Positions 3,599 to 29,586 are shown, counted from the stretch's first letter. The stretch: DNA of 64,000 bases from a virus (IMGVR_UViG_3300048577_000420:22579-86578), one strand, 5' to 3'. Notes: generated by a model not told the origin, from the letters alone. Numbers and translations are program-made.

Positions 3599-3868
3599 AT
3601 GCTCCGGAGCCGACTTCGCCCCCCTCGCGAGCAGGGTCGCGTGCTCGGATGGTGCGAGAGGCACCTGCCGATCGGCCCCACCGGGCTCCAGGTCACGCTG
3701 TCGAAGATCGGGTACGGCGTCTCCCCCGCCGTGCATCGCGTGATTCCGTGGGTCGTTCTCGTGCTGCATTCCCGCACGCTCGACTTCACCATTCCGCTCG
3801 TCCGCATTCCAGGAGCCACGTACGCCGAGCTCTGGTGGGACGACGACGAGGGCTGGGACGAGGCCTGA
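3599..3868 (+). CDS. Hypothetical 89-aa protein, translationally coupled to the sigma factor gene
   Basis: Frame 2 is protein-like with high GC3. The alternative upstream extension of the sigma frame is R-rich junk. Stop overlaps the sigma ATG (TGATG). Confidence 0.45.
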   Translation: MLRSRLRPPREQGRVLGWCERHLPIGPTGLQVTLSKIGYGVSPAVHRVIPWVVLVLHSRTLDFTIPLVRIPGATYAELWWDDDEGWDEA

Positions 3869-4611
3869 TGTACGAGGTCGACGTCGCGGAGCTGAGGGCC
3901 CTGTGGAGCCGCGCCCGCGCCGGGGATCATGCGGCCACGGAGGAGCTCGTCCGGCGGTACCACTGGCTCCCTCAGAAGATCGCCCGGTCCAAGCGGGTTC
4001 CCCCGCACTTCGATCGGGACGACATGGTGTCCTGGGCGAACTCGGGCCTGTTCGATGCGGTTCGCAAGTTCGACCCCGACAGCGGCGACGGCGCGCTGCA
4101 CGAGCACTTCATCGGGTACGCCACGCTCCGGATCAACGGGGCGATCCTCGACGGCATGAAGGCGCCCGGTCAGTCCTGGGCGACCCGCGAGGTGTGGCGC
4201 CGGCTGCGCGCGATGGAGGCCACCGAGGCCCAGGTCTCCCAGGATCTCGGTCGCCCGGCCACCCGGCAGGAGGTCGCCGCGGCCCTGGGGACGACGGTCG
4301 CCGACCTGCCCGTGTTCCAGCAGCAGGTCGGCCTGCAGGTGCCGACCCAGGGCGGCGAGGTCCTGCTCTCGGACTGGCTCCCGGACCACGAGGGCACCGA
4401 GGAGGCCGTCGAGATCTCGGAGATGGTGGACCGCGTCGCGGAGAAGGTCTCCCAGCTGCCGGCCGAGCACCTCGACGTCGTGTCCCGGCTCTTCCTGCGC
4501 GGTGAGGACGTCAAGGACGTCGCCGCCGAGGTCGGGCTGACCATCACCCGCACCCGCCGGCTCCGCGCCGAAGCGCTCCTGCGCCTGCGCGACCTGCTCC
4601 AGCAGGGCTGA
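3868..4611 (+). CDS. Sigma-70 family sigma factor (FliA/WhiG/SigF-like group 3)
   Basis: Region 2 reads FDPDSGDGALHEHFIGYATLRINGAILDGM. Region 4 HTH reads LFLRGEDVKDVAAEVGLTITRTRRLRAEALLRLR. Confidence 0.8.
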   Translation: MYEVDVAELRALWSRARAGDHAATEELVRRYHWLPQKIARSKRVPPHFDRDDMVSWANSGLFDAVRKFDPDSGDGALHEHFIGYATLRINGAILDGMKAPGQSWATREVWRRLRAMEATEAQVSQDLGRPATRQEVAAALGTTVADLPVFQQQVGLQVPTQGGEVLLSDWLPDHEGTEEAVEISEMVDRVAEKVSQLPAEHLDVVSRLFLRGEDVKDVAAEVGLTITRTRRLRAEALLRLRDLLQQG

Positions 4612-11482: not shown

Positions 11483-12160
11483 ATGCCCGTACCCCAGGGC
11501 GCGACCACCGACGTCATCACGGCTGACGTCTGGAACCGCCTCGTCGCGGCCGCCAACCAGGTGCAGCTCTTCCAGGTCGGCGCCAACCCCTACACCGACC
11601 TCTCGCTGCCCGGCGACTACCCCCAGGGCGTGACCGCCTTCAGCATCGAGGACGCGACGGGGTCGACCTGGCCTACGAGCTGGGCAGTCGTCGAGACCGT
11701 GCGCGTCAACACCACGCGGTGCCTGCAGCGGGCCACGAACAACCTCGGGTACGTCTACCAGCGGGTGGCGAACGGCGTCACGAACGCATGGTCGGCGTGG
11801 TCCCTCGTCGCCGGCCCCTGCGCCACCGCGGTACCCACGGCCGGCACCGGCTGGACCCAGATCCCCGGCCTGGCCGACCTGCAGTGCGTCCGCGACGAGA
11901 ACCTCATGGTCACCGTGCAGGGCATGGTGCGCCGGACCGGCGCGTCGATCACCGGCGGGTCGACGGGCACGATCATCAGCCTGCCTGCGGGCTTCCGGCC
12001 GACGAAGGCCATCTACGCGAGCCAGGCGCGTGACGGCGGCGCGGCGAACATGATCTTCGACAACACGGGCAACGTCAGCGCGGAGATCGCAGGCACCTGG
12101 AACAAGGACATCTCGTACGTGTCCTTCCACCTGACCTTCAAGGCCGCGGCAGTCAGCTAG
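11483..12160 (+). CDS. Tail fibre-like protein, paralogous to the C-terminal domain of the 8699..11335 product
   Basis: TWPTSWAVVETVRVNTTRCLQRATN here matches SWPAPYAIVETIRTGIGRCIQRLTA in the upstream gene. Confidence 0.6.
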   Translation: MPVPQGATTDVITADVWNRLVAAANQVQLFQVGANPYTDLSLPGDYPQGVTAFSIEDATGSTWPTSWAVVETVRVNTTRCLQRATNNLGYVYQRVANGVTNAWSAWSLVAGPCATAVPTAGTGWTQIPGLADLQCVRDENLMVTVQGMVRRTGASITGGSTGTIISLPAGFRPTKAIYASQARDGGAANMIFDNTGNVSAEIAGTWNKDISYVSFHLTFKAAAVS

Positions 12161-13007
12161 CGAGCGCGTCAGCCCGTCGGGGCTTGCGGCCGCGATCGGA
12201 CTGCCACAGGCGCTCCATCCAGCTGTCCGAGCGCCCCACACGCGCCGCGGCGCTCCAGGGGTCCATGCCGTGGTCGACGAGGAACCAGTACTCCTCGCGC
12301 ACCGCCTCGGTGTCCATCGCATCCTCGTCGGCCAGGATCCCGGTCTCGCCGTCCCAGAGCGGGTCGTCGAAGAAGAAGTCCCGGTCGAAGGCCTCGGGCG
12401 GCAGCCAGCCGGCGGACCGCGCGACTGCCGCCGCGTGTCTCTGTGGTCCTGGCGTCAGCGCGTGCTCGCGGACGACGTCCATGAGCCGCAGCGCGTACTC
12501 CATCGTGACCTTCGAGCGCCCGTAGCAGTTGGCGTCCCCGTGCATGAAGCGGCGCATCATCGCGTGGCCGTAGCCCATGACGGCCATCGCCTGGAACCGG
12601 CGCCGGCTCCCACCTACGGGTGCGAACCGCGCCGCGTTCTCCAGGTGAGGCAGCTCGCGGAGCTTCTGCATCGTCACGGGCGCGACGTACTCGCCCCGAC
12701 CGTGCTGGATCTTCCAGAGCTGGCTCGTGCTGATCCCCGCGGCCGTCGCCACCGCCTTCATCGAGAGGTTGTGCAGCGCGGCCTGCTTGTGGAGCACGAC
12801 CGCCGCCTCCTGGACGGGCGTGCGCCACTTCCAGTCCGGGTTCGCATGGCGGCGGAGCTCGTGCTCCTGCGCGCGCCGGTAGCGCGTCCTCCCGTCGGCA
12901 CCCACGCCTGGCCTTGGCACTCGCGCACTCCTCTCTCGATGCTGCGACGGAGAGGTTGACCTGCGGAGACGCTCGCCGTCCAGGCAGGGCGATTCCTGCC
13001 AGCGCAC
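12153..13007 (-). CDS. XRE-type HTH DNA-binding protein, leftward-transcribed (candidate repressor or regulator). Start codon uncertain
   Basis: HTH segment LHKQAALHNLSMKAVATAAGISTSQLWKIQHGRGEYVAPVTMQKL. Opposite orientation to the flanking operons. An IR copy overlaps the putative GTG start. Confidence 0.6.
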   Translation of the reverse strand: MRWQESPCLDGERLRRSTSPSQHRERSARVPRPGVGADGRTRYRRAQEHELRRHANPDWKWRTPVQEAAVVLHKQAALHNLSMKAVATAAGISTSQLWKIQHGRGEYVAPVTMQKLRELPHLENAARFAPVGGSRRRFQAMAVMGYGHAMMRRFMHGDANCYGRSKVTMEYALRLMDVVREHALTPGPQRHAAAVARSAGWLPPEAFDRDFFFDDPLWDGETGILADEDAMDTEAVREEYWFLVDHGMDPWSAAARVGRSDSWMERLWQSDRGRKPRRADALAS

Positions 13008-13010: not shown

Positions 13011-13277
13011 TCGTCGCGTACCGGGAGGGCGCCCGCGGCGGCCTCAGGATCTCCCTGCGGCTGTAGTGGCCGCGGCTCCCTCGTGGATGACCCGGGACGG
13101 CAACGCCGGGTGGGCTAAGGACTGGACACGGACACCTGTCTCCGACGGAGGCGTCGGCAGGGAACGGGCTCGGTCGCTCTCTCCGGACCACCGTGGCGTC
13201 GCCGCGGGGGGAAGGGGGGGCGTACCCAGAAGCCGTTTCCTGCTCCTCAAGAGGCGCCGTAGTCCTCCTTCCTGAAC

Positions 13278-13293
13278 GTGCTCTAGCAGGAAG
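13278..13293. promoter_or_regulatory. IR motif copy in reverse orientation (reverse complement CTTCCTGC-TAGA-GCAC)
   Basis: Read directly from the sequence. Confidence 0.5.
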
Positions 13294-13334
13294 TGCACGG
13301 AGTTGATCCGCGCGAGGCGCGAGGTCGATGCTCC

Positions 13335-13349
13335 CGAACACACGTTCGA
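13335..13349. promoter_or_regulatory. LexA/Cheo-like SOS box CGAAC-ACAC-GTTCGA, 17 bp upstream of the helicase start
   Basis: Matches the actinobacterial LexA consensus TCGAAC-N4-GTTCGA at 14 of 16 positions. Confidence 0.55.
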
Positions 13350-13365
13350 TTGGAGAGGACAGCGC

Positions 13366-14886
13366 ATGGTCAAGGCCCAGGTCGTCAGCGGCGGAGGTCG
13401 CGCATGGAGCACCGCCCCGCGGAAGGTCGCAGCGCCGCCGGCCGCGCCGACCGAGGAGCAGGCGGCCGCGATCGAGGCGTTCGGCGACGGGCACAACATG
13501 GTGCTGGAGGCCCTCGCCGGCACGGGGAAGACGACGACCCTCCGCCAGCTCGCGCACAGCACGAACATGCGCGGGCTCTACCTCGCCTACAACCGGTCGA
13601 CGGCCGACGAAGCGCAGGGCATGTTCCCGTCCAGCACGCGCTGCTCGACGATCCACTCCCTCGCGTACCGCGCGGTCGTCGACGACGTCATGCGCGAGCG
13701 GCTGAACGCCCCGCGGCAGACCAGCGCGGACGTGGCGAAGATCATCGGGGCGCCGGCCGGGTTCAAGCTCGACGGTGGCCGCGGCCGCCTCCTCGGGTCC
13801 AGCCAGCTGGCCAGGCTCGCCCTGGAGACGGTCACCGCCTTCTGCTACTCGGACGACCAGGAGATCGGCCCGCAGCACGTGCCCGCCCAGACGGGGGTCG
13901 ACGCCCCCGCCGAGGTGCGCGCGCTCGCGGCCGTCGTGGTGCCGCTGGCGAAGTCGGCCTGGTGGGACCTGCGCTCCCCCGACGGCGCGGTGCGGTTCCA
14001 GCACGACCACTACATGAAGCTCTACGCGCTGCGCGAGCCCCAGCTCGCCGCCGACTTCGTCCTCGTGGACGAGGCACAGGACAGCAACGACGTCGTCGTC
14101 GGCCTGGTCAACCGCCAGCGCGACTGCCAGGTGGTGGCTGTCGGCGACCGGCGCCAGCAGCTGTACGAGTGGCGCGGCTCGGTCGACGCGATGGACGCCT
14201 TCCACCCCGAGACGCGGCTCTACCTGACCCAGTCGTTCCGCTTCGGCCCAGCGATCGCCGAGCGCGCCAACCGCTGGCTGATCGCGCTCGGCGCCGACGT
14301 GCTGCTGCGCGGTACCCGCTCCATCCAGTCGGTCGTGGGGCCGATGGCGAAGCCCGCGGCGGTCCTGTGCCGGACGAACGCCGAGGTCATCCAGCGCGTC
14401 ATGGACGCCCAGCTGGCCGGCACGCCGGTCGCGATCGCGGGCGGGGGGCGTGACGTGCGCGCGCTCGCCGAGGCCGCGGAGCAGCTGAAGGACGTGGGCC
14501 GCACGTGGCACCCCGAGCTGTGCATGTTCACCAGCTGGGGCGAGGTGCAGGACTACGTCGAGGAGGGCGGCGGCCAGGACCTGAAGACGCTCGTCCGCCT
14601 CGTCGATCGGCACGGCGCGCGCGCGATCGTGCGGGCCATCGACCGCTGCGTGCCCGAGGCGACCGCTCGCCTGGTGGTGAGCACGGTGCACAAGGCCAAG
14701 GGGCGCGAGTGGGGCACCGTCCTCATCGCCGACGACTTCGAGGGGCCCGGCGAGGAGGCGGACGGCTCCGCGAAGTCGCTCGTCGCCGCCGAGGCGATGA
14801 CCGCGTACGTCGCCGTGACGCGCGCTCGGTTCGGGCTCGACGACTCCAGCCTGTCGTGGCTCGATGCGCACCTGGACGCCGAGTGA
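13366..14886 (+). CDS. Superfamily-1 (UvrD/PcrA/RecD-like) DNA helicase, compact at about 506 aa
   Basis: Motif I ALAGTGKTTTL, motif II VLVDEAQDSND, motif III VVAVGDRRQQLYEWRGSV, motif VI VSTVHKAKGREWGTVLI. ATG at 13366 with GGAGAGGA RBS. Confidence 0.8.
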   Translation: MVKAQVVSGGGRAWSTAPRKVAAPPAAPTEEQAAAIEAFGDGHNMVLEALAGTGKTTTLRQLAHSTNMRGLYLAYNRSTADEAQGMFPSSTRCSTIHSLAYRAVVDDVMRERLNAPRQTSADVAKIIGAPAGFKLDGGRGRLLGSSQLARLALETVTAFCYSDDQEIGPQHVPAQTGVDAPAEVRALAAVVVPLAKSAWWDLRSPDGAVRFQHDHYMKLYALREPQLAADFVLVDEAQDSNDVVVGLVNRQRDCQVVAVGDRRQQLYEWRGSVDAMDAFHPETRLYLTQSFRFGPAIAERANRWLIALGADVLLRGTRSIQSVVGPMAKPAAVLCRTNAEVIQRVMDAQLAGTPVAIAGGGRDVRALAEAAEQLKDVGRTWHPELCMFTSWGEVQDYVEEGGGQDLKTLVRLVDRHGARAIVRAIDRCVPEATARLVVSTVHKAKGREWGTVLIADDFEGPGEEADGSAKSLVAAEAMTAYVAVTRARFGLDDSSLSWLDAHLDAE

Positions 14887-15827
14887 GCGGGTACCGCGTC
14901 AACGACCGGCGCCGGCGCCCCGAGATCCCGGCAAGCATCCCGAACCCCGTCAAGGCCAAGCTCGCCGAGGCACGGGCGGAGGGCAGCAGGGCTGTCGCGA
15001 CCGTCCGGGTCCAGGAGTTCGCCAACCGCCAGGAGATCGCCAGCAGGTGGCCCGCGGCGCCGGACCTCGGAGCCAACCTCACCTACGAGGCCCGGGTCGC
15101 CCCGGTGCTCGCCGACGCCAAGGCCCGCGAGTCCGGGCTCGTGCTCGCCGGTCAGAACGTCGTCGTGATGCGGAACCGCCCAGGGATCGGGTCGCCGTAC
15201 GGTGGGTGGGAGTCCGCGCTGTACGGCGTCCGACCCATCACCGTCTGGGCCGACGAGGCGACCCTCGACGGCATGGACGAGGACGACTGGCGCTGGGTGC
15301 TCGCCCAGGACGCGGAGCGGGTCATCCCCGCCACGGTGACCTCACACGTCCGGGCCCTCGCCTGGTACGAGGGCCTCCTGAACCGCGGGCAGGCACTCCC
15401 CGTCCTGCAGCGCTGGGGACGGGCGATCGACGCCGTGGAGGAAGGCATCGAGCTGGTGACCTCGCTCGCCGGATCCGGGTCCGCCTTCTACCCCGAGGCG
15501 CCGGGGGTCCTCGACCTGACCGCCCAGGCTGCCGTCGCCAGCCGGAGCCGCGCGGTCATGAGGGGCTGGCTGACGCAGGCAAGAACCGTTGCAGATGCTG
15601 CAAAGGCATCGCGCGCGAAGGCCCGGGCCGACTGGCTGGCCTACGCCACCGAGAAGGCGGCCGAGGAAGCCGAGCCCTCCTGGCCGGCGCGAACCGCGGC
15701 CACCGACGCCGCCGCACCAGCCGGCGGCGGTGTCTTCTTGCCGGGGGGCAGCATGGTCGCGGACATCCAGAGGACCGTCGGCCTGCGGGGGTTCTCCCCC
15801 TCGCATGTCCTCTACGACGAGGCGTGA
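14883..15827 (+). CDS. Hypothetical 315-aa protein, translationally coupled (GTGA) to the helicase
   Basis: GTG at 14883 in the long open frame of ORF 14505..15827. High GC3. Confidence 0.6.
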   Translation: MSGYRVNDRRRRPEIPASIPNPVKAKLAEARAEGSRAVATVRVQEFANRQEIASRWPAAPDLGANLTYEARVAPVLADAKARESGLVLAGQNVVVMRNRPGIGSPYGGWESALYGVRPITVWADEATLDGMDEDDWRWVLAQDAERVIPATVTSHVRALAWYEGLLNRGQALPVLQRWGRAIDAVEEGIELVTSLAGSGSAFYPEAPGVLDLTAQAAVASRSRAVMRGWLTQARTVADAAKASRAKARADWLAYATEKAAEEAEPSWPARTAATDAAAPAGGGVFLPGGSMVADIQRTVGLRGFSPSHVLYDEA

Positions 15828-15835
15828 CGTGCGCT

Positions 15836-15853
15836 TCCTGCGCTAGCAGCAAT
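15836..15853. promoter_or_regulatory. IR motif copy TTCCTGC-GCTA-GCAGCAA
   Basis: Read directly from the sequence. Confidence 0.6.
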
Positions 15854-15862
15854 CGTCACGTA

Positions 15863-15877
15863 CGAACATCTGTTCGA
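15863..15877. promoter_or_regulatory. LexA/Cheo-like SOS box CGAAC-ATCT-GTTCGA, upstream of the packaging operon
   Basis: Read directly from the sequence. Same GAACA..TGTTCGATG context as the boxes at 13335 and 25662. Confidence 0.55.
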
Positions 15878-15899
15878 TGCCCGGCCGACACTGGAAGGC

Positions 15900-16622
15900 G
15901 TGGGAGGACCGGGCAGCGGCCGCCGTAAGGCCGCGGAGACGATCGAGCGGGAGATCGCTGCTCACGCCGCGAGTCAGCCGCAGGCGGAGGCCACCGGCAC
16001 GCCCGCGATGCCCGAGCTCCGCGAAGTGACCCAGCCCACGGGCTCCATCCTCAAGGTCCAGGGCCCGGACGAGGAGCGCTTCTACAACGACGCGCGCGCC
16101 AAGTACCTGGAGCAGAACCACTTCGACGCCGTCACCGACCTCGCGGACCTCGACGCGCTGCTCATGCACGAGCTCCTCGACTTCCGCTACTCCACCCAGC
16201 TCGCGTCGGGGAAGTCGTACGACGGCCTCTTCCTCTCCTTCAGGGCCGAGGAGCAGCTGCGGCAGAACAAGCTGGCCGAGGCGAAGGTCATCGGAGAGCT
16301 GAAGAAGCAGCTCGGCCTGACGCGGGCGTCTCGTGACGCTGCGCAGGGCTCGACGGCCGACTACATCCGCGACCTCATGCGGCGGGCCAAGGAGTTCGGG
16401 GTCTACCGGGACGAGCAGATCATGCGCGCCGTGGTCCTCGCGAACGAGCTCAAGAGCATCGTCGAGACCTTCGACCGCTCCAACGACACGGAGAAGCGCG
16501 TCGTCGGCATCGAGTCCGAGTCCGACATCGTCGACTGGGTCCGGCAGATGTTCATCCCGGCGTTCGACAGCATCGACCAGCAGTTCCGGGCGAACCAGCG
16601 GCTGTGGGTCGGGACCCTGTGA
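15900..16622 (+). CDS. Hypothetical protein, first gene of the packaging operon
   Basis: ORF track. GTG start with GGAAGG RBS. Confidence 0.6.
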   Translation: MGGPGSGRRKAAETIEREIAAHAASQPQAEATGTPAMPELREVTQPTGSILKVQGPDEERFYNDARAKYLEQNHFDAVTDLADLDALLMHELLDFRYSTQLASGKSYDGLFLSFRAEEQLRQNKLAEAKVIGELKKQLGLTRASRDAAQGSTADYIRDLMRRAKEFGVYRDEQIMRAVVLANELKSIVETFDRSNDTEKRVVGIESESDIVDWVRQMFIPAFDSIDQQFRANQRLWVGTL

Positions 16623-17203
16623 CCCTCCCGTCGGCGGCGGACTGGCGGCAGCACTTCACGGACGTGCCCCCGGCCTTCTACCGGCTCCTCGGCGAGCTCC
16701 TGCAGGAGGTCCAGGCCGAGCGAGAGCGCGAGCAGGGCGTGGAGCGGCGCGGCCGGCGCCCCGCACTGGCCTCCGGCTCGATGCAGGACGTCGCCGACCT
16801 CGTCTACCCGCGGCGTTCGTCTCTGCCCTTCGCCGAAGCCCTGCGCGCCGCGACCCGCCAGACGCCGTCGACGATCGCACGCCTCGCCTCGATGAACCCC
16901 GGCACCCTCCACGGGCTCATGAACGGCTCGCGCCAGCTCAACATGGCGGTCCTGCAGGACATCGCACGAGCCATCCACGTCGACCCCGCGTACTTCCACG
17001 AGTACCGCGTCCTCGCGATCCACGAGGCCATCGACTCCCTGCTGACGCCGGAGCGCTCTGCGCGCGCGTACGCGGCCATCGAGCCCACCTACAACGCCGC
17101 CCGGCCGGAGCCGAAGAACGCGGCCGGGTTCACGACGACCGCCCGGCCGGGCACGAATACCTTTGCCAATCCTGCAAAGCGAGTCGAGGGCTCTCGGGCA
17201 TGA
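16619..17203 (+). CDS. HTH (XRE-like) DNA-binding protein, putative terminase small subunit
   Basis: HTH segment TIARLASMNPGTLHGLMNGSRQLNMAVLQDIARAI. Sits directly upstream of and coupled to TerL (ATGA). Confidence 0.5.
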   Translation: MTLPSAADWRQHFTDVPPAFYRLLGELLQEVQAEREREQGVERRGRRPALASGSMQDVADLVYPRRSSLPFAEALRAATRQTPSTIARLASMNPGTLHGLMNGSRQLNMAVLQDIARAIHVDPAYFHEYRVLAIHEAIDSLLTPERSARAYAAIEPTYNAARPEPKNAAGFTTTARPGTNTFANPAKRVEGSRA

Positions 17204-18816
17204 CCGCCCTTGCACGCCTGACCGAGGAAGAGGCCTACCTCGCCGCGATCCTCATGGACCCGACCGGTGTCGACATCGCCGAGTTCCTCTGGGAGGACAC
17301 GGAGGCATCGCCCGACGGCTGCTACCGCCTCTGGCCCTTCCAGTGGCCCTGGTCGCACTCCGGCGAGCAGTACGAGATCGACGCGATGGCCCGCCAGCTG
17401 GGCAAGTCGTTCTCCGTCGTCTGGAAGGCGATGGGCTTCGTCTTCCAGCAGCCCGGCCAGGAGATGCTCGTCACGGCGCCCGAGCTCAACCACCTGGAAC
17501 TGCTCACCTCGAAGATCGAGGACGCCTTCAACCGCTACCGCCTGCTCGACGAGATGCGACCGCGCACCGCCGCGCGCGGCATCAAGAAGCAGCCGCACTG
17601 GACCATGAAGTGCCAGAACGGCGCCACCATCATGACCCGCCTGCCGAACCGGGACGGCCGCGGCGTCAAGGGCACCCACCCGGTCGTGATCGAGCTCGAC
17701 GAGGTCCAGGACTACCCCACCGCCGGCTACACCGAGCTCATCGAGACGATCAAGACCACGGCCGCCGGCATGACCTGGCGCGTGCACGGGGTCTCGAAGG
17801 GCGTCGGCCGCGACCTCCACTACACGCTCACGCAGGGCAAGAACGAGGGCCACCGCTTCTACGTCCACCACTACATCGCCGCCCACCGGCCGGGCTGGAC
17901 CGACGAGGAGCGGCAGACCAAGATCGCGCAGTACGGCGGCGACGAGTCGCACCCGGACTACCAGCGCAACGTCCTCGGCCTGCCCAGCGACGCCGGCTCG
18001 ACCCTCTTCGTCACCGCTCGCCTCCTCGCGTGCGTGCGCATCCGCGAGAGCGAGTGGGCCATCGAGTACAACGACGACGTCTACGCGCGCATCAAGGTCA
18101 ACGACGCCCTCGTCGAGCGCGTCGGCGCGATCGAGTCGCTCATCGACCTGCCGATCTGCCACCTGCGCGAGGAGTACCGGACCTACTGGGCTGGCGCCGA
18201 CATCGGCTTCACGAACGACCCCACCGAGATCCTCGTCTTCGGGTCGCTCAAGGACGGCACGGACCGCCTCCTCGCGCGCATCCGACTGGAGCGCATCTCC
18301 GCGCAGGACCAGGTCCGGGTCATCAAGCACGTCTTCGAGTTCTACGGTCTGCGGCTGCAGCGCTTCGGGATGGACCGGACCGGCAACGGCCTGCCGCTGA
18401 TGCAGTTCCTCAAGGACGACCGCGCGATCGCCGAGCGCATCGTCGGCTACAACTTCGCCGAGAAGCGCCCCGTGGAGTTCCAGGATCGCGAGCCGCGCCA
18501 GGGCGAGAAGCCCGAGGACATGGTCATCGTGCGGAACGTCAAGGACTACGCCACCGACGAGCTCCGCAAGATGGTCGACGCGAAGAAGCTGGAGCTGCCG
18601 TTCGACGACGAGCTGCTCAAGGAGTGGCAGGGCCAGACCGCCTACATCGTCAGGACCTCGAAGGACGACGACGGGGTCAAGCGCTCCTACGGCGGCGGCG
18701 CCTGCCACACCCTGGACGGCGCTCGGATGTACGCCGCGGCCAAGACACTGATGGCCATCGAGAAGCTGCTGGAGAAGCCCGCGAAGGCCGCACCGGTGCT
18801 CGATCGCTTCTTCTAG
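17200..18816 (+). CDS. terL: Terminase large subunit
   Basis: ATPase and nuclease hallmarks (VVIELDEVQD Walker B-like region). Size and position are typical of TerL. Confidence 0.8.
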   Translation: MTALARLTEEEAYLAAILMDPTGVDIAEFLWEDTEASPDGCYRLWPFQWPWSHSGEQYEIDAMARQLGKSFSVVWKAMGFVFQQPGQEMLVTAPELNHLELLTSKIEDAFNRYRLLDEMRPRTAARGIKKQPHWTMKCQNGATIMTRLPNRDGRGVKGTHPVVIELDEVQDYPTAGYTELIETIKTTAAGMTWRVHGVSKGVGRDLHYTLTQGKNEGHRFYVHHYIAAHRPGWTDEERQTKIAQYGGDESHPDYQRNVLGLPSDAGSTLFVTARLLACVRIRESEWAIEYNDDVYARIKVNDALVERVGAIESLIDLPICHLREEYRTYWAGADIGFTNDPTEILVFGSLKDGTDRLLARIRLERISAQDQVRVIKHVFEFYGLRLQRFGMDRTGNGLPLMQFLKDDRAIAERIVGYNFAEKRPVEFQDREPRQGEKPEDMVIVRNVKDYATDELRKMVDAKKLELPFDDELLKEWQGQTAYIVRTSKDDDGVKRSYGGGACHTLDGARMYAAAKTLMAIEKLLEKPAKAAPVLDRFF

Positions 18817-18855
18817 GCGTTCGTTCGGCTTCGTCTCGGTTCGATTGACGAGTAC

Positions 18856-19317
18856 GTGCCGACCGCCACCGTCCAGCCCGGATCCCCGTTCCGCTCGCCC
18901 GCGCCCGCCGTCCCGGCCGCCCAGACCGCCTGCGGCTCGTGCGGCGCCGTCTTCACGATGGGCCAGGCGCACATCTGCGCGCCCCGGATGACCAACGCCG
19001 GCATGGCCGCCATGCGCCAGGGCCTCGGGACCCGCGAGGAGATCCAGGGCGAGCTCGACGAGATCGCCGCCGCGATGCGGGGCTTCTACCTCAAGGCGCC
19101 GGACCAGGTGCTCCGTGAGTGCTCCGCCTACTCGGCGCGGCTGACCGAGCTCTACGTCCTCCTGCACCGCGCCGAGGGCCTGGACCGGCAGTACACCCGC
19201 CTCCGCACCCAGCAGGTCCAGGTCTTCCTGGACGAGATGCGCGAGCAGTGGAAGACCGCGAGCCGGCTCATCGAGGTCCAGCGACAGGACCTCCTGCTCC
19301 TGGGGGGTCAGGCGTGA
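18856..19317 (+). CDS. Hypothetical protein
   Basis: ORF track. Coupled to the portal gene (GTGA). Confidence 0.5.
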   Translation: MPTATVQPGSPFRSPAPAVPAAQTACGSCGAVFTMGQAHICAPRMTNAGMAAMRQGLGTREEIQGELDEIAAAMRGFYLKAPDQVLRECSAYSARLTELYVLLHRAEGLDRQYTRLRTQQVQVFLDEMREQWKTASRLIEVQRQDLLLLGGQA

Positions 19318-21020
19318 CGAGCATCGACACCGGCTGGGTCGGCGCCAGCGCCGTCAACCTCACCGACCTGCCCGACGAGGTCATCCTCCCGAGCGTCCGC
19401 GAGACCGCCCAGTACCTCCAGAACTGGGTGCGCGAGACCCGCGCCCAGAAGGCGAAGCCCGGGTCGCTCTTCGACCGCACCAAGTTCACGGCACCCAAGG
19501 GGCCGTACGAGGAGATGGAGGTCGCCCGGACGGCGGTCCGCGACGACGACGTGGTCTCGGCGGCCGCGGACGTCACCGAGGGCCTGATCCTCCAGGGCAC
19601 GGCGTGGGGCTCGTCGAGCGAGAAGGCCGCCGACGTCATGAACCAGGTCTCCGCCGGGCTGGACCTCGACGGGTACCTCCGCGCCGCGTACCGCGAGCAG
19701 TTCACGTACTCGCAGGTCGTGTCCGCCGTCTGGTGGGGCAGGCGCGACTTCGTCCCGCGCGTCCGGACGACCTCCGACACTCCGAACGCGGACGGCTCGA
19801 AGCGCACCTACCCGCAGCGGAAGGCCATCACCCTCAACGTGCCCACCCGCATCGTCACGCTGGACCCCCGCAAGGTCGTGCCGATCGGGGACACGATCTT
19901 CGGCGAGCAGCGCCTGGCGTGGCACGCGACGGCCGGCATGATGTCCGCCTGGACCGCGATGGAGGATCACCCCATCGCGAGCTACGACGCGACGATGGCC
20001 GCCCTCTTCCTGGGGCCGTACACGCCGTCCGACGACGAGGCCATGCGCCTGTCGGAGTGGGGCGTCGACCCCAAGCGCCTCATCGAGTTCCGGCCGGGCG
20101 CCGTGTGGCGGCACACCCGCACGAAGCCCGACTACGAGCCCTTCCCCGACCTGCGGATGCGCTCGGTCTTCCGCCTGCTCGACCTCAAGCAGCAGCTCCT
20201 GGAGTCCGACCGCGTCATGCTCGTCGGCGCCGCCAACTACATCCTCCTGGTGAAGAAGGGCTCCGACGCCCAGCCGGCGTCCCAGCCCGAGGTGGACAAC
20301 CTCAAGGAGGGCTTCCAGGTCATCGCCAAGCTCCCGGTGATCGTCTCGGACCACCGGCTGAGCATCGAGATCATCTCGCCGAAGCTCGACGCCACCCTCA
20401 TCGCGGACAAGTACGACCTGCTCGACTCGCGCATCCTCGCGCGGCTCTTCGGCGCGCCGACCGTCAACAGCGGCGCCCGCGGCGACCAGACGGCCGGCAC
20501 GACGACCCGCATGATGCAGCGCCACCTGGAGACCCAGCGGCACATGCTCCGGCGCACCGTCGAGGAGCGGATCCGCGACGCGATCTGGGAGCACCCGGGG
20601 AACGCCGAGGCCCTGCGCCAGTTCAAGCCGGACGAGAAGCCGAGCCTCTTCTTCACGCCGCGCAACGTCCAGCTAGACAACGACAGCCAGGTCATCGCCT
20701 CGATCATGGCCGCCCGGCAGAGCCGCGACCTCTCGCGCGAGTCGTTCCTGGAGACGCTCGGCTTCGACCAGGACGTCGAGGCGCAGCGGATGAAGCGCGA
20801 GGCCGACCTCTACGACGACATCTTCCAGACCCAGGTGCCTTTCAGCGCTGACGGTGGCGATGGGAACCAGGGGGCGGGCGACAAGCCGAGCGAGCCGAGT
20901 CAGGTCTCGGGGGCCCGCGGCGGCCGGCCGGCAGGGGGCGGCCAGTCGCCGCAGTCGGCCAAGGGCCAGGTGAAGCGCCGCACCGCGAGCGGGGCGCCAT
21001 CGACGGGAGGTGCGAAGTGA
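19314..21020 (+). CDS. Portal protein
   Basis: 568 aa, follows TerL, acidic/Gly-rich C-terminus. GTG start at 19314. Confidence 0.7.
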   Translation: MTSIDTGWVGASAVNLTDLPDEVILPSVRETAQYLQNWVRETRAQKAKPGSLFDRTKFTAPKGPYEEMEVARTAVRDDDVVSAAADVTEGLILQGTAWGSSSEKAADVMNQVSAGLDLDGYLRAAYREQFTYSQVVSAVWWGRRDFVPRVRTTSDTPNADGSKRTYPQRKAITLNVPTRIVTLDPRKVVPIGDTIFGEQRLAWHATAGMMSAWTAMEDHPIASYDATMAALFLGPYTPSDDEAMRLSEWGVDPKRLIEFRPGAVWRHTRTKPDYEPFPDLRMRSVFRLLDLKQQLLESDRVMLVGAANYILLVKKGSDAQPASQPEVDNLKEGFQVIAKLPVIVSDHRLSIEIISPKLDATLIADKYDLLDSRILARLFGAPTVNSGARGDQTAGTTTRMMQRHLETQRHMLRRTVEERIRDAIWEHPGNAEALRQFKPDEKPSLFFTPRNVQLDNDSQVIASIMAARQSRDLSRESFLETLGFDQDVEAQRMKREADLYDDIFQTQVPFSADGGDGNQGAGDKPSEPSQVSGARGGRPAGGGQSPQSAKGQVKRRTASGAPSTGGAK

Positions 21021-21838
21021 CCACGGCCGAGATCAGGGACCGCCTGAACCCGCGGCTCCCCGGGCGCCGGATCCTCCGCGCGGTTCCTGCGCCCGCAGGT
21101 TCCGTCACGAGCGCGCCGGCCTTCGTCGTCGAGGACCCGGACTCGAACCGGGTCGTGCTCGCCCAGCCGATCGAGACCGCCGCCTTCACGGCTGACGACT
21201 TCCTGCTCAAGTTCCGCGGCCGCCTCGTGCGCGCCGAGCAGGCGAACCGCAACGGCGCCTTCTGGTCCTCGAAGGACCTGGAGTTCGGCCTGCCGTCGGT
21301 CGCTCACGGCCCGCTCAACTGGGGTCACGACGTCGCGACGATCGTCGGCACCCTCGTCGACCCGAAGCTCGTGAAGGCCGAGCACGCCGCGGCGGGCGCG
21401 GGCACGCACATCCAGACCGGCGCCGTCATGTGGGCCTACCTCTACCCGGAGCGCGCGCGCGTCCTGCGCCAGCACATCGACTCCGGCACCGCGTGGCTCT
21501 CGATGGAGTGCGTCTCGAACGAGGTCGCGTGCGTGGGCCCGAACGGGTGCGGCGCCGTCATGCCCTACGCGGACGCGCAGATGCGCACTGGAAAGGCGTG
21601 CCAGCACATCAAGGAGCGCGCCTCGCACCGACGCTTCGTGAACCCGATCTTCCAGGGCGCCGGCGTCATCGTGCCGCCCCAGGCGCCCGGCTGGGCGGAC
21701 GCGCACATCACCGGCGTCGCCGAGGCGGAGGGGCTGGCCGAGGCCGCCTCCCTGCAGGTGCCCGGGCTGAGCGACGCGGACGTCGTCGGGATGGTGGCTT
21801 CGATCCTGGAGTGGTCGAAGAACAAGGCCGCGAGCTGA
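21017..21838 (+). CDS. Hypothetical protein, possibly a head maturation protease (by position)
   Basis: Follows the portal and is coupled to it (GTGA). No clear catalytic triad could be assigned by eye. Confidence 0.45.
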   Translation: MTTAEIRDRLNPRLPGRRILRAVPAPAGSVTSAPAFVVEDPDSNRVVLAQPIETAAFTADDFLLKFRGRLVRAEQANRNGAFWSSKDLEFGLPSVAHGPLNWGHDVATIVGTLVDPKLVKAEHAAAGAGTHIQTGAVMWAYLYPERARVLRQHIDSGTAWLSMECVSNEVACVGPNGCGAVMPYADAQMRTGKACQHIKERASHRRFVNPIFQGAGVIVPPQAPGWADAHITGVAEAEGLAEAASLQVPGLSDADVVGMVASILEWSKNKAAS

Positions 21839-21881
21839 CCACAAGCCAGCCCGCGGCTCGCTTCGAGGAAAGGGGCCGCTC

Positions 21882-22127
21882 GTGACCCTCCGGAACCGCA
21901 TCGACGACGAGCGCAGCAAGGGGGGCGGCTGCCTCCTCGCGCAGAGCAGGGCGCGCCTCCCGGAGGACGAGCGCACCGCCTTCGACGAGCTCATCGGCGC
22001 GAAGGTCGGGGGCGAGTACGAGTTCTCGGCCCGCCGCGCCGTCGCCATCCTGGCGGAGTCGGGAGTCAAGGTCGGCACCACGCTGGTCCTCACCCACCGC
22101 CGCGGCGAGTGCAGGTGCTCGCGATGA
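21882..22127 (+). CDS. Small hypothetical protein
   Basis: ORF track. ATGA coupling to the next gene. Confidence 0.4.
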   Translation: MTLRNRIDDERSKGGGCLLAQSRARLPEDERTAFDELIGAKVGGEYEFSARRAVAILAESGVKVGTTLVLTHRRGECRCSR

Positions 22128-23311
22128 GCCTCAAGGAGAGCATCGCGCAGGAGCGCGCGTCCCGGACGCCCGGCGAGATCGTCAGCAAGGTCGCCGACCT
22201 GCTGGAGCGCTCCGGCATCGACATCGAGGACGTCGGCCGCATCCACAAGGTCGAGCTCGGCGAGTACCAGGCCATCACCAAGGACGACAAGGGCGTGGCC
22301 CACACCCACGACCTGGAGCGCGCCTCGCTCGTGCTCACGCCGAAGTGGGCGGACGGCCCGGCATGGCCCGTCGTCCAGCCCGCGCCGCAGGCGGTCATCC
22401 GCGGCCGGAAGCCTCCCCGCCGCTCCCCCGCGCTCATCCGCAAGTGGGGCACCGGCATCCTCCTGCCGGACCCCCAGATCGGCTTCCGGCTCATCGACGA
22501 GGTGCTCGACCCGTTCCACGACGACGGCGCGATGGACGTCGCGCTCCAGGTCGCCGCAGCCCACGAGCACGAATGCGGCGTCGACAAGATGATCAACCTG
22601 GGCGACTACCTCGACCTCGCGACCATGTCGCGGTTCATCCAGGAGGCCGCGTTCGCCCAGACGATGCAGCCGGCCGTCGACCGCGGCTACCGCTTCATGG
22701 CCGAGCAGCGCGCGACGGCGCCGAACGCCGACCTCGTCCTGATCGAGGGCAACCACGACCGGCGCCTGCAGAACTTCATCACGACCAACGCGCTCGCGGC
22801 GTTCGGCCTCAAGCAGGCGCAGCGCCCCAAGAGCTGGCCCGTCCTCTCGCTGCCTCACCTGCTGCGCCTCGACGAGATGGACGTCACGTACATCGATGCC
22901 TGGCCCGCCGGCGAGTACTGGGTCAACCAGAACCTCCGGTGCATCCACGGCAACAAGGTCCGCTCGTCCGGGTCGACAGCCAACGCGGTCGTCAAGGACA
23001 ACCCGGCGATCTCCACGGTCATGGGCCACATCCACCGGATCGAGACGCACTACAAGACGATCGGCACCCGCAACGGGCCGCTCCGGACCGCCGCGATCTC
23101 CCCCGGGTGCCTGTGCCGCGTGGACGGGGCGGTCCCGAGCGTCAACGGCTCGACCGGTCTCGACGGGCAGCCGGCGGTCCACTGGGAGGACTGGCAGCAG
23201 GGCGTCGGGGTCGTCAAGTACACCGACGACCGCTTCTTCGTGACCGTCCACCAGATCGTCGACGGGGCCACCGTCGTGGGCGGGCAGGAGTTCAAGGCCT
23301 TCGCCGCCTAG
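22124..23311 (+). CDS. Calcineurin-like metallophosphoesterase
   Basis: Motifs GDYLD, LVLIEGNHD and GHIHR. Confidence 0.65.
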   Translation: MSLKESIAQERASRTPGEIVSKVADLLERSGIDIEDVGRIHKVELGEYQAITKDDKGVAHTHDLERASLVLTPKWADGPAWPVVQPAPQAVIRGRKPPRRSPALIRKWGTGILLPDPQIGFRLIDEVLDPFHDDGAMDVALQVAAAHEHECGVDKMINLGDYLDLATMSRFIQEAAFAQTMQPAVDRGYRFMAEQRATAPNADLVLIEGNHDRRLQNFITTNALAAFGLKQAQRPKSWPVLSLPHLLRLDEMDVTYIDAWPAGEYWVNQNLRCIHGNKVRSSGSTANAVVKDNPAISTVMGHIHRIETHYKTIGTRNGPLRTAAISPGCLCRVDGAVPSVNGSTGLDGQPAVHWEDWQQGVGVVKYTDDRFFVTVHQIVDGATVVGGQEFKAFAA

Positions 23312-23317
23312 CCACCC

Positions 23318-23366
23318 CCGAGGGGCGTTCTCCAGGTCTCTGACCTGCGAGGACGCCCCTCTTGCT
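23318..23366 (+). terminator. Hairpin GAGGGGCGT-loop-ACGCCCCTC followed by TTGCTGTCTCT
   Basis: Read directly from the sequence. Confidence 0.5.
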
Positions 23367-23378
23367 GTCTCTGGGGCA

Positions 23379-23396
23379 TTCCTGCGGGCGCACGAT
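23379..23396. promoter_or_regulatory. IR motif copy TTCCTGC-GGGC-GCACGAT followed by TCGGCGT, upstream of the scaffold/capsid operon
   Basis: Read directly from the sequence. Confidence 0.5.
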
Positions 23397-23482
23397 TCGG
23401 CGTTCCTCCGCAAGCCCGTCGAGTACCTCCCGCGAGGCCCGCGCAAGCCAGGCCTGACTTCGAGCGAGGAGGAGGACGGCTC

Positions 23483-24061
23483 ATGGCACGTGAGCTCGCA
23501 CTTCCGCGGGAGACCGCGGAGGACGCAACCGTCCCGCGTGAGGTGGCAGCCGAGGAGCGCACCTTCACGGAGGGCGAGACCTACGCACTGGTGGCGGACA
23601 ACGTCGCCCGTGAGACGGCGTCGCTGCAGGCGGAGAAGGCCGGCCTGGAGACCCAGGTCGCCACGCTGACCGCGGAGAAGGCCGAGCTGCAGAACCGGCT
23701 CGACACCGAGACCGCCCGGGCGGAGAAGGCCGAGCAGGACTTCGAGGCGTACAAGGCGGACGAGGTCCGCAAGGCCGAGCTCGCCGAGCTGGCCGGGACG
23801 CGCACGAAGGCGGTGCGCGAGGTGGCCAAGCACCTGAAGGACGACTTCTTCACGCCCGAGCGCGCCGAGCGCTGGGCCGCGATGGACCAGGCGGACTTCG
23901 ACACCTACCTCGCCGAGATGGCCGCCGCCTCCGCCGGCGCCGGCGAGCCCAAGCCGGGTGCGGAGACCGCCGCGCTCGACAGCACCGCGATGTCCGGCGA
24001 GCAGCCCGCTGCTCCCAAGGGCGGCGCGGCGTTCTTCGACTTCCTCGGAAGGGGGAACTGA
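23483..24061 (+). CDS. Scaffolding-like coiled-coil protein
   Basis: Long Ala/Glu-rich coiled coil (LQAEKAGLETQVATLTAEKAELQNRLDTE), immediately upstream of the capsid gene. Confidence 0.55.
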   Translation: MARELALPRETAEDATVPREVAAEERTFTEGETYALVADNVARETASLQAEKAGLETQVATLTAEKAELQNRLDTETARAEKAEQDFEAYKADEVRKAELAELAGTRTKAVREVAKHLKDDFFTPERAERWAAMDQADFDTYLAEMAAASAGAGEPKPGAETAALDSTAMSGEQPAAPKGGAAFFDFLGRGN

Positions 24062-24062
24062 C

Positions 24063-24581
24063 GTGTCCGACTACGGCAAGAACTTCGGCTTCCGGCGCTC
24101 GGAGCCGGCGGTTCGGGAGGGCCGGCTCAAGGTCCCCGCGAGCGGCACCTACCTGCAGGGCGAGCTGGTCACCTACAACCCGGCCAAGCCCGGCGAGCTC
24201 ACGCACGCCGCGGCCGGCGCCGCGGTCCAGGCCGGCTTCACCGGCCTCCTGATCCAGGAGGAGGGCTGGGACGTCTCGGCGTTCGGCCCGCCCGTCGTGG
24301 ACAGCAACTCCAAGGGCAAGGCGCTCAACGCCAAGCCCGGCGTCATCACGACCGGCGCCGGCCTGAAGGTCTGGCTGCGCAACACGGCCACGGACACGCA
24401 CTTCGACGGCCGGGTCATCCCCGCCGTCACGCGCGTGGACCTCACCGGCGTGACGGCCATCGGCGACGAGCTCCAGTGGGACGGCGCCAAGTACGTGAAG
24501 AAGAGCACCGGCGCCGCCGTGCTCAAGGTCACCGCGATCGACGTGGCCGGCGGCTACGTCGAGGCGGTCCTGGTCGGCTGA
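24063..24581 (+). CDS. Hypothetical head protein
   Basis: GTG start 2 nt after the upstream stop. Confidence 0.5.
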   Translation: MSDYGKNFGFRRSEPAVREGRLKVPASGTYLQGELVTYNPAKPGELTHAAAGAAVQAGFTGLLIQEEGWDVSAFGPPVVDSNSKGKALNAKPGVITTGAGLKVWLRNTATDTHFDGRVIPAVTRVDLTGVTAIGDELQWDGAKYVKKSTGAAVLKVTAIDVAGGYVEAVLVG

Positions 24582-24598
24582 CGAGAGAGGAGATGACG

Positions 24599-25567
24599 AT
24601 GCGCAAGACCAACGTGCTCTCCCAGCTCATGGCGAGCGCCCCGCGGCGCGAGTTCGCCTCGGTCGAGCAGGAGCGGGCCTACAAGACGGCCGCCGACGCG
24701 CTGAACGCCGACGCCCAGGCCAGGTGGGGCGACCCGACGTGGCACCGCGAGCAGGCCGCCCTGATCGCGGAGCGCCTGGAGTGGGGCTTCCAGAACGACA
24801 ACATCCTCGGGTCGTACTTCCCGACGCAGTCGGTCGGGCAGTTCGACAAGGTGGTGCTGGAGGAGCTCCGCGGCCTCAAGGTCTTCTGGACCGCCCGCAA
24901 CGGCCAGATCGACGAGAGCCAGATGTCGACCGACCGCTTCGAGCTGCCGCGCGAGACGCTCGGCTGGCACGTCTCGGAGTTCGAGGACAACTGGCAGGCC
25001 GACTACGCCGCGACGGTCGAGAAGCTGGTGGCGTACGCCCGCCTGCGCGAGACCGCCGAGGTCAACCGCCGCATCTTCTCGGTGCTGCAGGAGGCCATCC
25101 CGTCGTCCTCGCCGTACTTCGAGGACGCGAGCTCGGCCGGCCTCAAGCCGGAGGTGCTCAACCCGCTCCTCTCGGAGGTCGCGGACATCGCCCCGCCGAG
25201 CAACGGCTCCCTGTCGATGCCCCTGGCGATCGTCGGCCGTGCGGCCGCGATCGACCAGATCTCGGACTTCACCAACTTCGCCCCCGAGGCGCAGGAGGAG
25301 ATCCGCAAGAAGGGTCGGCTGGGCGTCTACCGCGGCGCGAACATCGTCCGGATCACCAACTGGACGGACGAGGACGGCAAGCCGTACATCCCCGAGGACG
25401 AGGTCTTCGTGATGGGCGGCGACCTGGGTCGGTTCGTGAGCTACGGCGACGCGAAGTTCCGGACGTGGTCCGAGGACGCGACCGACCACTTCCACGCCCG
25501 CTCGCGGCGCGACATCGGCCTCGCGATCTACCGGCCGCAGTTCGCGCGCCGCATCAAGGTCGCCTGA
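24599..25567 (+). CDS. Putative major capsid protein
   Basis: About 322 aa. Follows the scaffold gene. Strong AGGAG RBS. A terminator follows the gene. Confidence 0.6.
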   Translation: MRKTNVLSQLMASAPRREFASVEQERAYKTAADALNADAQARWGDPTWHREQAALIAERLEWGFQNDNILGSYFPTQSVGQFDKVVLEELRGLKVFWTARNGQIDESQMSTDRFELPRETLGWHVSEFEDNWQADYAATVEKLVAYARLRETAEVNRRIFSVLQEAIPSSSPYFEDASSAGLKPEVLNPLLSEVADIAPPSNGSLSMPLAIVGRAAAIDQISDFTNFAPEAQEEIRKKGRLGVYRGANIVRITNWTDEDGKPYIPEDEVFVMGGDLGRFVSYGDAKFRTWSEDATDHFHARSRRDIGLAIYRPQFARRIKVA

Positions 25568-25587
25568 CCGAGCACGGCAAGGCGGAA

Positions 25588-25628
25588 GGCCCCTGGGGAC
25601 ATACCCGGGGGCCTTCCCCTTTCTGCGG
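25588..25628 (+). terminator. Hairpin GGAAGGCCCC-loop-GGGGCCTTCC followed by CCTTTCT
   Basis: 10-bp perfect stem read directly from the sequence. Confidence 0.6.
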
Positions 25629-25637
25629 TAGCAGGAA
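25620..25637. promoter_or_regulatory. IR motif copy TTTCTGC-GGTA-GCAGGAA followed by TCGGCGCGT
   Basis: Read directly from the sequence. Confidence 0.6.
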
Positions 25638-25661
25638 TCGGCGCGTCCCGGCGGTCGAGGG

Positions 25662-25675
25662 GAACACGTGTTCGA
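25662..25675. promoter_or_regulatory. LexA/Cheo-like box GAAC-ACGT-GTTCGA
   Basis: Read directly from the sequence. Confidence 0.5.
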
Positions 25676-25708
25676 TGGACACGTGGCCACCCACTCCGGA
25701 GGAGACAG

Positions 25709-26197
25709 ATGAGCGAGACCCCGCAGTACGAGACCTGGGAGAAGACCACCGCCGGCGGCGTGTGGATCCAGAACGTCGACCCCGTGCGGAACACCGAGAC
25801 CCCGAAGCGCGTCCGCGGCAAGTCCGGCTACCGGTTCCGCATCCCCACCCGCGACCGCGAGGCCACGAGCGCGCGCTTCTACGAGGCCGAGCGCGACCCG
25901 TTCCGCAACGGCACGCTCGTGCGCGTCGACATGGACCCCGAGGCCGTCATCGAGGCGATCCCCGGCTACGACGCCGACCAGGCCCTCACCGACGAGGCGC
26001 TGGTCGCGATCTTCGCCAAGAACGGCAACGCCTTCCAGTCGGCGGTCAAGAAGCTCAACGAGCGCAACTGCCGGCGGCTCGCCGACCTCGCGGCGGCCAA
26101 CCCGGAGACCGTGCGGGCCGCCCAGGTGACCTTCCTGAGCTCGTACATCGTCGAGAACTACCGCGTCGGCGGCGCCCCCACGGACCCCGACGACTGA
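25709..26197 (+). CDS. Hypothetical protein
   Basis: ORF track. RBS GGAGGAGA. Confidence 0.55.
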   Translation: MSETPQYETWEKTTAGGVWIQNVDPVRNTETPKRVRGKSGYRFRIPTRDREATSARFYEAERDPFRNGTLVRVDMDPEAVIEAIPGYDADQALTDEALVAIFAKNGNAFQSAVKKLNERNCRRLADLAAANPETVRAAQVTFLSSYIVENYRVGGAPTDPDD

Positions 26198-26365: not shown

Positions 26366-26377
26366 AGTGATGGGGCC

Positions 26378-29521: not shown

Positions 29522-29568
29522 GCCCTCGATGATCGTCGCCTGCCTGGGCGGCCAGCAAGGTTCTCCAG

Positions 29569-29586
29569 GACCTGCGAGCGCAGGAT
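29569..29586. promoter_or_regulatory. IR motif copy GACCTGC-GAGC-GCAGGAT followed by TCGCTGCC, between the moron and the major tail gene
   Basis: Read directly from the sequence. Confidence 0.5.

Follow-up and report, generated by a model that had tools for sequence, protein, structure and literature searches.

The subject of this study is a 16-bp palindrome, similar to the LexA-binding sites (SOS boxes) of actinobacteria, which occurs three times in a 64,000-nucleotide (nt) stretch of viral DNA (IMGVR_UViG_3300048577_000420:22579-86578), referred to here as the window. The GC content of the window is 71% throughout. Its genes include those for a large terminase (phrog_2, E = 5.6e-16), a portal protein (phrog_9232), a capsid protein (PF27364/YonB family) and a superfamily 1 (SF1) helicase, and a primase-helicase and a large serine recombinase are encoded at the right end. 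The window represents a prophage from an uncultured host; that this host is an actinobacterium is concluded from the presence of an Lsr2-like and a WhiB-like gene. The sequence is contained unchanged in a 440-kb contig (Ga0498942_000115) of JGI metagenome 3300048575. The same prophage was found on contigs from two sister samples, with zero differences from the window. We found no near-identical phage in INPHARED, where the capsid protein had distant matches only, and no relative among the reference genomes searched by terminase and capsid. The phage group is known only from metagenomes.

The genes around the palindromes are arranged as follows (coordinates are given in Table 1). A minus-strand gene for a protein with a weak helix-turn-helix (HTH) match is followed by a 460-nt gap that contains box 1 and a degenerate copy of an inverted repeat (IR), then by the helicase gene, a gene for a protein of 314 amino acids (aa), and an IR with box 2. 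The 240-aa, HTH_31, terminase and portal genes come next, and further downstream the capsid gene, a hairpin, an IR with box 3, and the head-completion and tail genes. Although 91% of the window is coding, all three boxes are intergenic, and each precedes the first gene of an operon (the helicase, the packaging, and the head-completion and tail operons).

Table 1. Positions of the boxes, the neighbouring elements and the genes discussed in the text, counted from the first nucleotide of the window.
Feature	Position	Strand	Remarks
Lsr2-like gene (both domains) and WhiB-like gene	2908-3228 and 56292-56594	+	typical of actinobacterial phages
FliA/WhiG (sigma-28)-type sigma factor	3868..4611	+	candidate reader of the GTTCGAT / GTCGAGT elements
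Divergent 250-aa weak-HTH protein	12153..12905	-	repressor candidate; 22% identity to its positional counterpart in L090
Degenerate IR cTTCCTGaacgtGCTCTAGCAGGAAg	13269..13293	+	upstream of box 1
Box 1 CCGAACACACGTTCGAT	13334..13350	+	LexA-type palindrome; 15 nt before the helicase ATG at 13366
SF1/UvrD-like helicase	13366..14886	+	first gene past box 1
IR TTCCTGCGCTAGCAGCAA	15835..15852	+	upstream of box 2; core identical in L090, L092 and L097
Box 2 ACGAACATCTGTTCGAT	15862..15878	+	LexA-type palindrome; 14 nt past the IR, 21 nt before the GTG at 15900
Operon past box 2 (240-aa protein, HTH_31 protein, large terminase)	15900..18816	+	
Stand-alone element GTTCGATTG	18839..18847	+	no palindromic partner, no IR; 8 nt before the GTG at 18856, no Shine-Dalgarno sequence between
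GC-rich hairpin GGAAGGCCCCTGGGG-acata-CCCGGGGGCCTTCC, then CCTTT	25584..25617	+	terminator-like, 3' of the capsid gene; read from the sequence
IR TTTCTGCGGTAGCAGGAAT	25620..25638	+	upstream of box 3, directly past the terminator-like hairpin of the capsid gene
Box 3 GGGAACACGTGTTCGAT	25660..25676	+	LexA-type palindrome; 27 nt past the IR, 32 nt before the ATG at 25709
162-aa protein	25709..26197	+	first gene past box 3; opens the head-completion and tail block

We found exactly three matches to GAACNNNNGTTCGAT in the window (13336-13350, 15864-15878 and 25662-25676), all on the plus strand, and no match in 100 dinucleotide-preserving shuffles. The shorter pattern GAAC-N4-GTTC is also confined to these three boxes, with about 0.6 occurrences expected per window. 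Compared with TCGAAC-N4-GTTCGA, the 16-mers of boxes 1, 2 and 3 agree at 15/16 (CCGAACACACGTTCGA), 15/16 (ACGAACATCTGTTCGA) and 14/16 positions (GGGAACACGTGTTCGA), and the better-matching half is gene-proximal in every case.

These counts bear out an earlier annotation of the locus (the original prediction), which had reported GAAC-N4-GTTCGAT three times, before the helicase, the packaging operon and the gene after the capsid gene. The coordinates and gene assignments hold, and the match to the LexA consensus is better than the 12-14 of 16 positions it had given. Its distances of 13-35 bp between an IR copy and a box need correction: GAAC begins 46, 14 and 27 nt past the IR core (ending in TAGCAG; CTGCGCTAGCAG or variants of it) at boxes 1, 2 and 3, respectively. 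An IR copy does lie upstream of each box, the one at box 1 being degenerate (GTGCTCTAGCAG). The context GAACA-NN-TGTTCGAT, described as common to all, is found at two boxes; box 1 reads GAACA-CA-CGTTCGAT.

Scoring with a LexA weight matrix, as had been proposed, was carried out with 17 published SOS boxes of Streptomyces venezuelae (PMC9380542) in place of those of the host. On this matrix, the three boxes were the top three sites of the window, with 19.0 bits for box 1, 18.9 for box 3 and 18.0 for box 2 (minus-strand readings TCGAACGTGTGTTC, TCGAACACGTGTTC and TCGAACAGATGTTC). All three exceed the best training site (17.5 bits), and the next unrelated site in the window reached 14.2 bits. Sites of at least 18 bits occurred on average 0.04 times per simulated window (n = 100 windows). 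Box 1 and the lexA-2 box of S. venezuelae have 13 consecutive bases in common (the first 13 of box 1). The degenerate published consensus CGAAC-N4-GNNCG was also tried as a detector; it was too permissive at 71% GC, with many coding matches, and the weight matrix was used.

SOS boxes of actinobacteria follow TCGAAC-N4-GTTCGA in Mycobacterium, TcGAAmAnnTGTtCGA in Corynebacterium glutamicum and tCGAAC-N4-GNNCGa in S. venezuelae. The phage boxes have the 16-bp palindrome, the half-sites, the spacing, the spacer preferences and the position just upstream of genes in common with them, and the A...T flanking the central four bases agrees with the C. glutamicum consensus. However, the phage boxes lie on a prophage, at helicase, packaging and tail operons and not at repair genes, and they differ also in their uniform orientation, in their fusion to a conserved phage motif and in adjoining an operator-like IR. 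Phage-tail-like genes that are bound by LexA and strongly induced have been reported in S. venezuelae (PMC9380542), which sets a precedent within the clade for structural genes of phage origin under LexA control.

A scan of viral contigs for GAACANNTGTTCGATG returned at least 119 loci, at all GC contents, a number near the chance expectation. On one unrelated IMG/VR viral contig of 63% GC (L201), GAACAGGTGTTCGATG, AACACCTGTTCGATG and GAACATGTGTTCGATG stand in tandem within about 70 nt; two are exact boxes and AACACCTGTTCGATG is a near copy. From its sequence, the tandem looks like a multi-box SOS-type promoter. The open reading frames (ORFs) adjoining these boxes showed nothing clear.

Conservation was explored in about 10 related lineages on metagenome contigs (designated by L numbers), which were collected via capsid and terminase homologues (63-84% identity). 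At site 2, L097 carries AGAACACCTGTTCGAT at the same 14-nt distance from the IR, and its box is identical to that of the window at 13/16 positions, against 6/22 in the downstream flank. At site 3, an element lies exactly 35 nt past ...TAGCAG in eight lineages; it reads GTTCGATGG in the window, L090, L092 and L103, GTTCGATAGG in L096, GTTTGATGG in L104, GTTCAATGA in L099 and GAACGATGA in L097. A hexamer that is rich in A/T and has AT at its end is common to the variants. A full GAAC as the left half occurs in the window alone; L096 and L097 have TCGATC and the others an unrelated sequence, which leaves a full or near-full palindrome in the window, L096 and L097 and the right half alone in L090, L092, L103, L104 and L099. 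Box 3 of the window and its counterpart in L096 are identical at 12/16 positions, compared with 12/25 in the flanks. We count these two contrasts, at box 2 and box 3, as tentative support for selection on the whole palindrome.

Further LexA-like sites were found in the relatives. L090 has TCGAACGTACGAAC (16.8 bits) between an IR and its leftward operon, and TCGAACACACGTCG before a tail gene, where L096 has the near copy GCGAACACACGTCG. For box 1, 80 helicase homologues from viral contigs were uninformative; they stand in other gene contexts with no box upstream.

The right half of the boxes also occurs by itself. A fourth intergenic GTTCGAT lies past the terminase gene at 18839 and is identical to the right half of box 1 (GTTCGATTG). 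At this place the block GTTCGA(T/G)TG is invariant in eight lineages (alignment A6), and a second conserved block, GTTCGTTT, lies 13 nt upstream, which gives GTTCGTTT-N13-TTCGATTG in the eight lineages (window 18814-18858). A sister motif, GTCGAGT(G/A), precedes several tail genes, often 8 nt before the ATG, as in GTCGAGTG-N8-ATG (window 26362-26380). Over all lineages, TCGA(G/T)NR-N8-(A/G)TG coincided with an independently called start in 17 of its 23 occurrences. A motif 8 nt upstream of a start codon that lacks a Shine-Dalgarno sequence has a geometry that resembles the -10 element of a leaderless or near-leaderless transcript, and the element at 18839 is accordingly read here as a putative -10-like element of a leaderless-type promoter. 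Judged from these alignments, (T)GTTCGAT(G/T)G, which forms the right half, is conserved independently as a phage element, also at places where there is no palindrome.

Other promoter types were also considered for this region. No housekeeping sigma-70 promoter was found between 12.9 and 26.3 kb. A SigR/SigH-like pattern, GGAAT-N18-GTT, fits site 2 in the window and in L097 by way of the GGAAT of the IR and does not fit sites 1 and 3; we rejected it as a by-product of the spacing.

A candidate reader of these elements is encoded in the window (Table 1). Its product matches the NCBIfam model TIGR02479 FliA_WhiG over the full length (E = 5.9e-25) with 88 bits, which is under the family cut-off of 190; its best PDB matches are FliA chains, and it also matches the sigma factor family phrog_351 (E = 8e-17). 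Homologues are present in two related viral contigs (L106, 3001-3702; L107, 1245-1991). The gene has an IR upstream (3538) and GTCGAG directly 3' of it at 4612, and GTCGAGTG is found past the sigma gene in L106 and L107. Like sigma-28 promoters, TTCGATTG and GTCGAGTG carry a CGA(T) core, at a -10-like place for leaderless starts. We infer that the phage elements may be read by the phage sigma factor.

The IR that adjoins the boxes is more widely distributed. Copies of TTCCTGCGCTAGCAGGAA(TCG) lie at 3538, 13278, 15838, 25623, 45111, 45138 and 50218 on the plus strand and at 36777 and 56559 on the minus strand. At least seven copies are intergenic, mostly oriented with transcription, past terminators and before operons, and the early region is preceded by the two tandem copies at 45111 and 45138. 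The centre, GCTA, is not palindromic and is flanked by arms of up to 10-12 bp. Most related lineages have an identical core, and the IR does not differ even between lineages with capsids of no more than 72-84% identity. At box 3 it is kept at the equivalent place in L090, L092, L096, L097, L099, L103 and L104. The hairpin behind the capsid gene has an equivalent in the relatives; a strict T-run scan did not detect the copy of the window. Repressor sites that are repeated through a phage genome are known as the stoperators of cluster A mycobacteriophages and the conserved inverted repeats of phiC31. The IR resembles them as a repeated intergenic site before operons, a likeness that concerns the IR and not the boxes.

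A second IR class with a GC-only centre (CCTGCG-GG/AG/CC-CGCAGG) was observed at about 23395-23415 and 29568-29585, with equivalents in L090, L094, L096, L098 and L099. GTCGAGT(A/G)C follows 13-23 nt downstream of it, before scaffold-region and tail genes.

The original prediction had offered two readings of the boxes, direct control by host LexA or a phage-specific element that forms a bipartite promoter with the IR. A bipartite promoter of fixed spacing was rejected, given the variable distance to the IR and the occurrence of the right half without an IR at 18839. What remains of this second reading is the right half, GTTCGAT(G/T)G, which is conserved in relatives that lack the palindrome. 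Whether the 16-mer occurs only next to IR sites, which had been suggested as a mark of a phage promoter element, came out neither way: the half element is found without an IR at 18839, and the full palindrome is found in a subgroup of lineages only. The first reading is supported at the sequence level by the top-three matrix scores, the fit to the C. glutamicum consensus and the actinobacterial nature of the prophage.

We therefore lean, with modest confidence, towards a combination in which the three boxes would be host LexA operators superimposed on the -10-like element of phage promoters. GTTCGA reads TCGAAC on the opposite strand, so that the phage element by itself matches a LexA half-site perfectly. 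At three of the four intergenic GTTCGAT elements, a GAAC stands exactly 4 nt further upstream. This placement cannot be due to chance: with about 0.6 occurrences of GAAC-N4-GTTC expected per window, three are observed, and all of them lie at these elements. Since the left half is lacking both at 18839 and in several relatives, it does not belong to the promoter consensus, yet its sequence is kept between the window and L097. These patterns would be explained most simply by a dimeric protein that binds the palindrome, and host LexA is the probable binder, since its specificity fits 14-15 of the 16 positions.

If the boxes are such superimposed LexA operators, GTTCGAT(G/T)G would act as the -10-like element for RNA polymerase with the phage sigma factor, and transcription would start about 8-9 nt downstream. 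In this lineage, GAAC would have arisen 4 nt upstream at three such promoters and would have given full LexA operators over the -10 element and the spacer. Bound LexA would then cover the putative -10 element and spacer, roughly from -26 to -11, and prevent initiation. In a lysogen, these promoters would be shut off jointly by LexA and by the factor that occupies the adjoining IR, where a phage regulator may act in parallel. DNA damage would lead to RecA-stimulated cleavage of LexA, and the promoters would be freed. A more tentative extension is that phage late promoters can become full SOS operators by the gain of four bases, with host LexA and the phage sigma factor competing for the same bases. 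The conversion seems to have been repeated, to judge from the three promoters of the window, site 2 of L097, site 3 of L096, and GTTCGTACGTTCGA before the leftward operon of L090.

Several points weigh against host LexA as the binder or against the promoter that is thought to underlie the boxes. The box at site 2 is absent in L090, L092, L094, L098 and L099, that is, in 5 of the 6 other lineages compared. At site 3, the variants GTTTGATGG, GTTCAATGA and GAACGATGA disrupt the most conserved LexA positions, which argues that the ancestral element there was not a LexA site. A symmetric dimer does not require the better half to be gene-proximal, and the uniform orientation and the T past GTTCGA are explained by the promoter layer and not by LexA. 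Repression of the helicase, packaging and tail operons by LexA would hamper lytic growth in undamaged cells and make it depend on SOS or read-through, unless SOS is induced by the infection itself, LexA loses the competition with the phage holoenzyme, or there is enough read-through. Such dependence would be unusual, as the known phages under LexA control mostly gate the lysis-lysogeny switch or an antirepressor. Moreover, SOS-box-like motifs can be bound by other regulators, among which ArsR-family proteins have been mentioned (PMC8151990).

The promoter side also has its difficulties. The sigma-28 promoter consensus consists of TAAA at -35 and GCCGATAA at -10 (PMC8325347). Compared with GCCGATAA, the phage elements (TTCGATTG, TTCGATGG) have only the CGAT core in common, and agree at 4/8 positions. 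A TAAA element was absent about 15 nt upstream, and the stand-alone promoter has GTTCGTTT 13 nt upstream instead. The sigma factor itself is also under the family cut-offs. By their -10 and -35 sequences, the elements are not members of the sigma-28 promoter type, and the likeness is a functional one.

The palindromes could instead be operators of a dimeric regulator encoded by the phage, with LexA-like specificity, perhaps a small LexA-like winged-helix protein that activates or represses the late promoters, comparable to gp6 at the late promoter P3 of Bacillus phage GIL01. Boxes at late and structural operons recall the gp6 sites of GIL01 (PMC6182141), and the restriction of the full palindrome to some lineages (window, L097 and L096; not L090, L092 or L099) would suit a factor that changes with the phage. 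The HTH gene at 12153-12905 is strongly divergent between lineages (22% identity), and many small ORFs have no assigned function. On the other hand, searches of 49 non-structural ORFs (E ≤ 0.01) and of the regulator candidates gave no match to LexA_DNA_bind or Peptidase_S24, although small divergent winged-helix proteins could escape detection by Pfam. Serglycin matches from Pfam were spurious and were produced by joining ORFs with GS linkers. For an unrelated regulator, moreover, the agreement with host-type LexA boxes at 14-15 of 16 positions and in the spacer would have to be a coincidence, and we regard a phage-encoded binder as unlikely.

It is also conceivable that the boxes are promoters only, with GTTCGAT(G/T)G as a -10-like element for a phage sigma factor or an alternative sigma factor of the host and GAAC as mere spacer without a binder of its own. 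The right half is indeed conserved without the left half in several lineages and stands alone at 18839, its orientation to the gene is always the same, and the phage encodes a FliA/WhiG-like sigma factor. However, a mere spacer does not account for GAAC exactly 4 nt upstream at three independent promoters, where the chance is about 0.003 per site from base composition. Neither does it account for a left half that is kept between the window and L097 while it is missing from the best-conserved stand-alone promoter and so lies outside the promoter consensus. This explanation appears quite improbable to us. RNA hairpins in the 5' leaders, with a role in processing, stability or antitermination, are highly improbable: each box can form a stem of 4-5 bp with a 4-nt loop, which would be in the leader if transcription starts at the IR, but such stems are very short, the folding energies of the leaders do not differ from those of shuffles (z from -1.4 to +1.5), the TT>AA change at site 3 of L097 is uncompensated, and no Rfam family matched.

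Control by LexA is known for tum of coliphage 186, for PrstA of CTXphi (LexA plus RstR) and for the antirepressors of Gifsy-type phages. Sites of the SOS repressor inside phage promoters would be common to these systems and to the present phage. In CTXphi and in Bacillus phage GIL01, LexA sites stand side by side with sites for a phage-encoded factor. In GIL01, LexA acts with gp7 at P1, gp6 acts at the late promoter P3, and LexA-like boxes are found at the late promoter (PMC4551915, PMC6182141). The known systems gate the lysis-lysogeny switch or one late promoter, whereas this prophage has boxes at three separate operons. Unlike in GIL01, no gp7-like or gp6-like protein was recognised in the window, and unlike in the known LexA-controlled phages, the boxes overlap a putative sigma-specific -10 element.

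That temperate phages carry SOS boxes is well established; here, near-consensus boxes are found at the replication helicase, packaging, and head-completion and tail operons. If LexA binds them, late functions of an actinobacterial prophage would be gated directly by SOS at several points, and the boxes would be an example of a phage promoter family that is pre-adapted to recruit a host repressor. Expression of the helicase, packaging and tail genes would then be tied to the DNA-damage state of the host, on top of the IR-based control by the phage. Even without LexA binding, the results define a conserved promoter-like element and a phage sigma factor for this group.

Some further observations were made in the window and its relatives. 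The divergent HTH gene is separated from the genes on the helicase side by a non-coding block of some 220-250 nt (window 13040-13260; L090 1290-1540; L092 1340-1570). The block (...GGCNGTAGTGGCCGYGGCTCCC...GGGGGGNAGGGGGGGCGT...) is kept between lineages whose flanking genes barely resemble each other. No Rfam family matches it, and it might encode a phage RNA or serve in replication or packaging. Two direct repeats GTTACCGAAyCGTTAyC were found at 2640-2710, where the DNA between a minus-strand gene and the Lsr2 gene is unusually rich in A/T. A metallo-phosphoesterase gene (22109-23311, plus strand; phrog_20266, E = 6e-96) lies within the head block, between the portal-side and the scaffold and capsid genes. 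A single protein encoded at 56842-57816 (plus strand) consists of DUF4406 and the N-terminal domain of a dATP/dGTP diphosphohydrolase. In other phages, diphosphohydrolases of this type are part of pathways that change the pool of nucleotides for modified DNA. In a distant relative, the terminase homologue (L105, 391-4194) has 1267 aa and contains an intein (Hint_2, LAGLIDADG).

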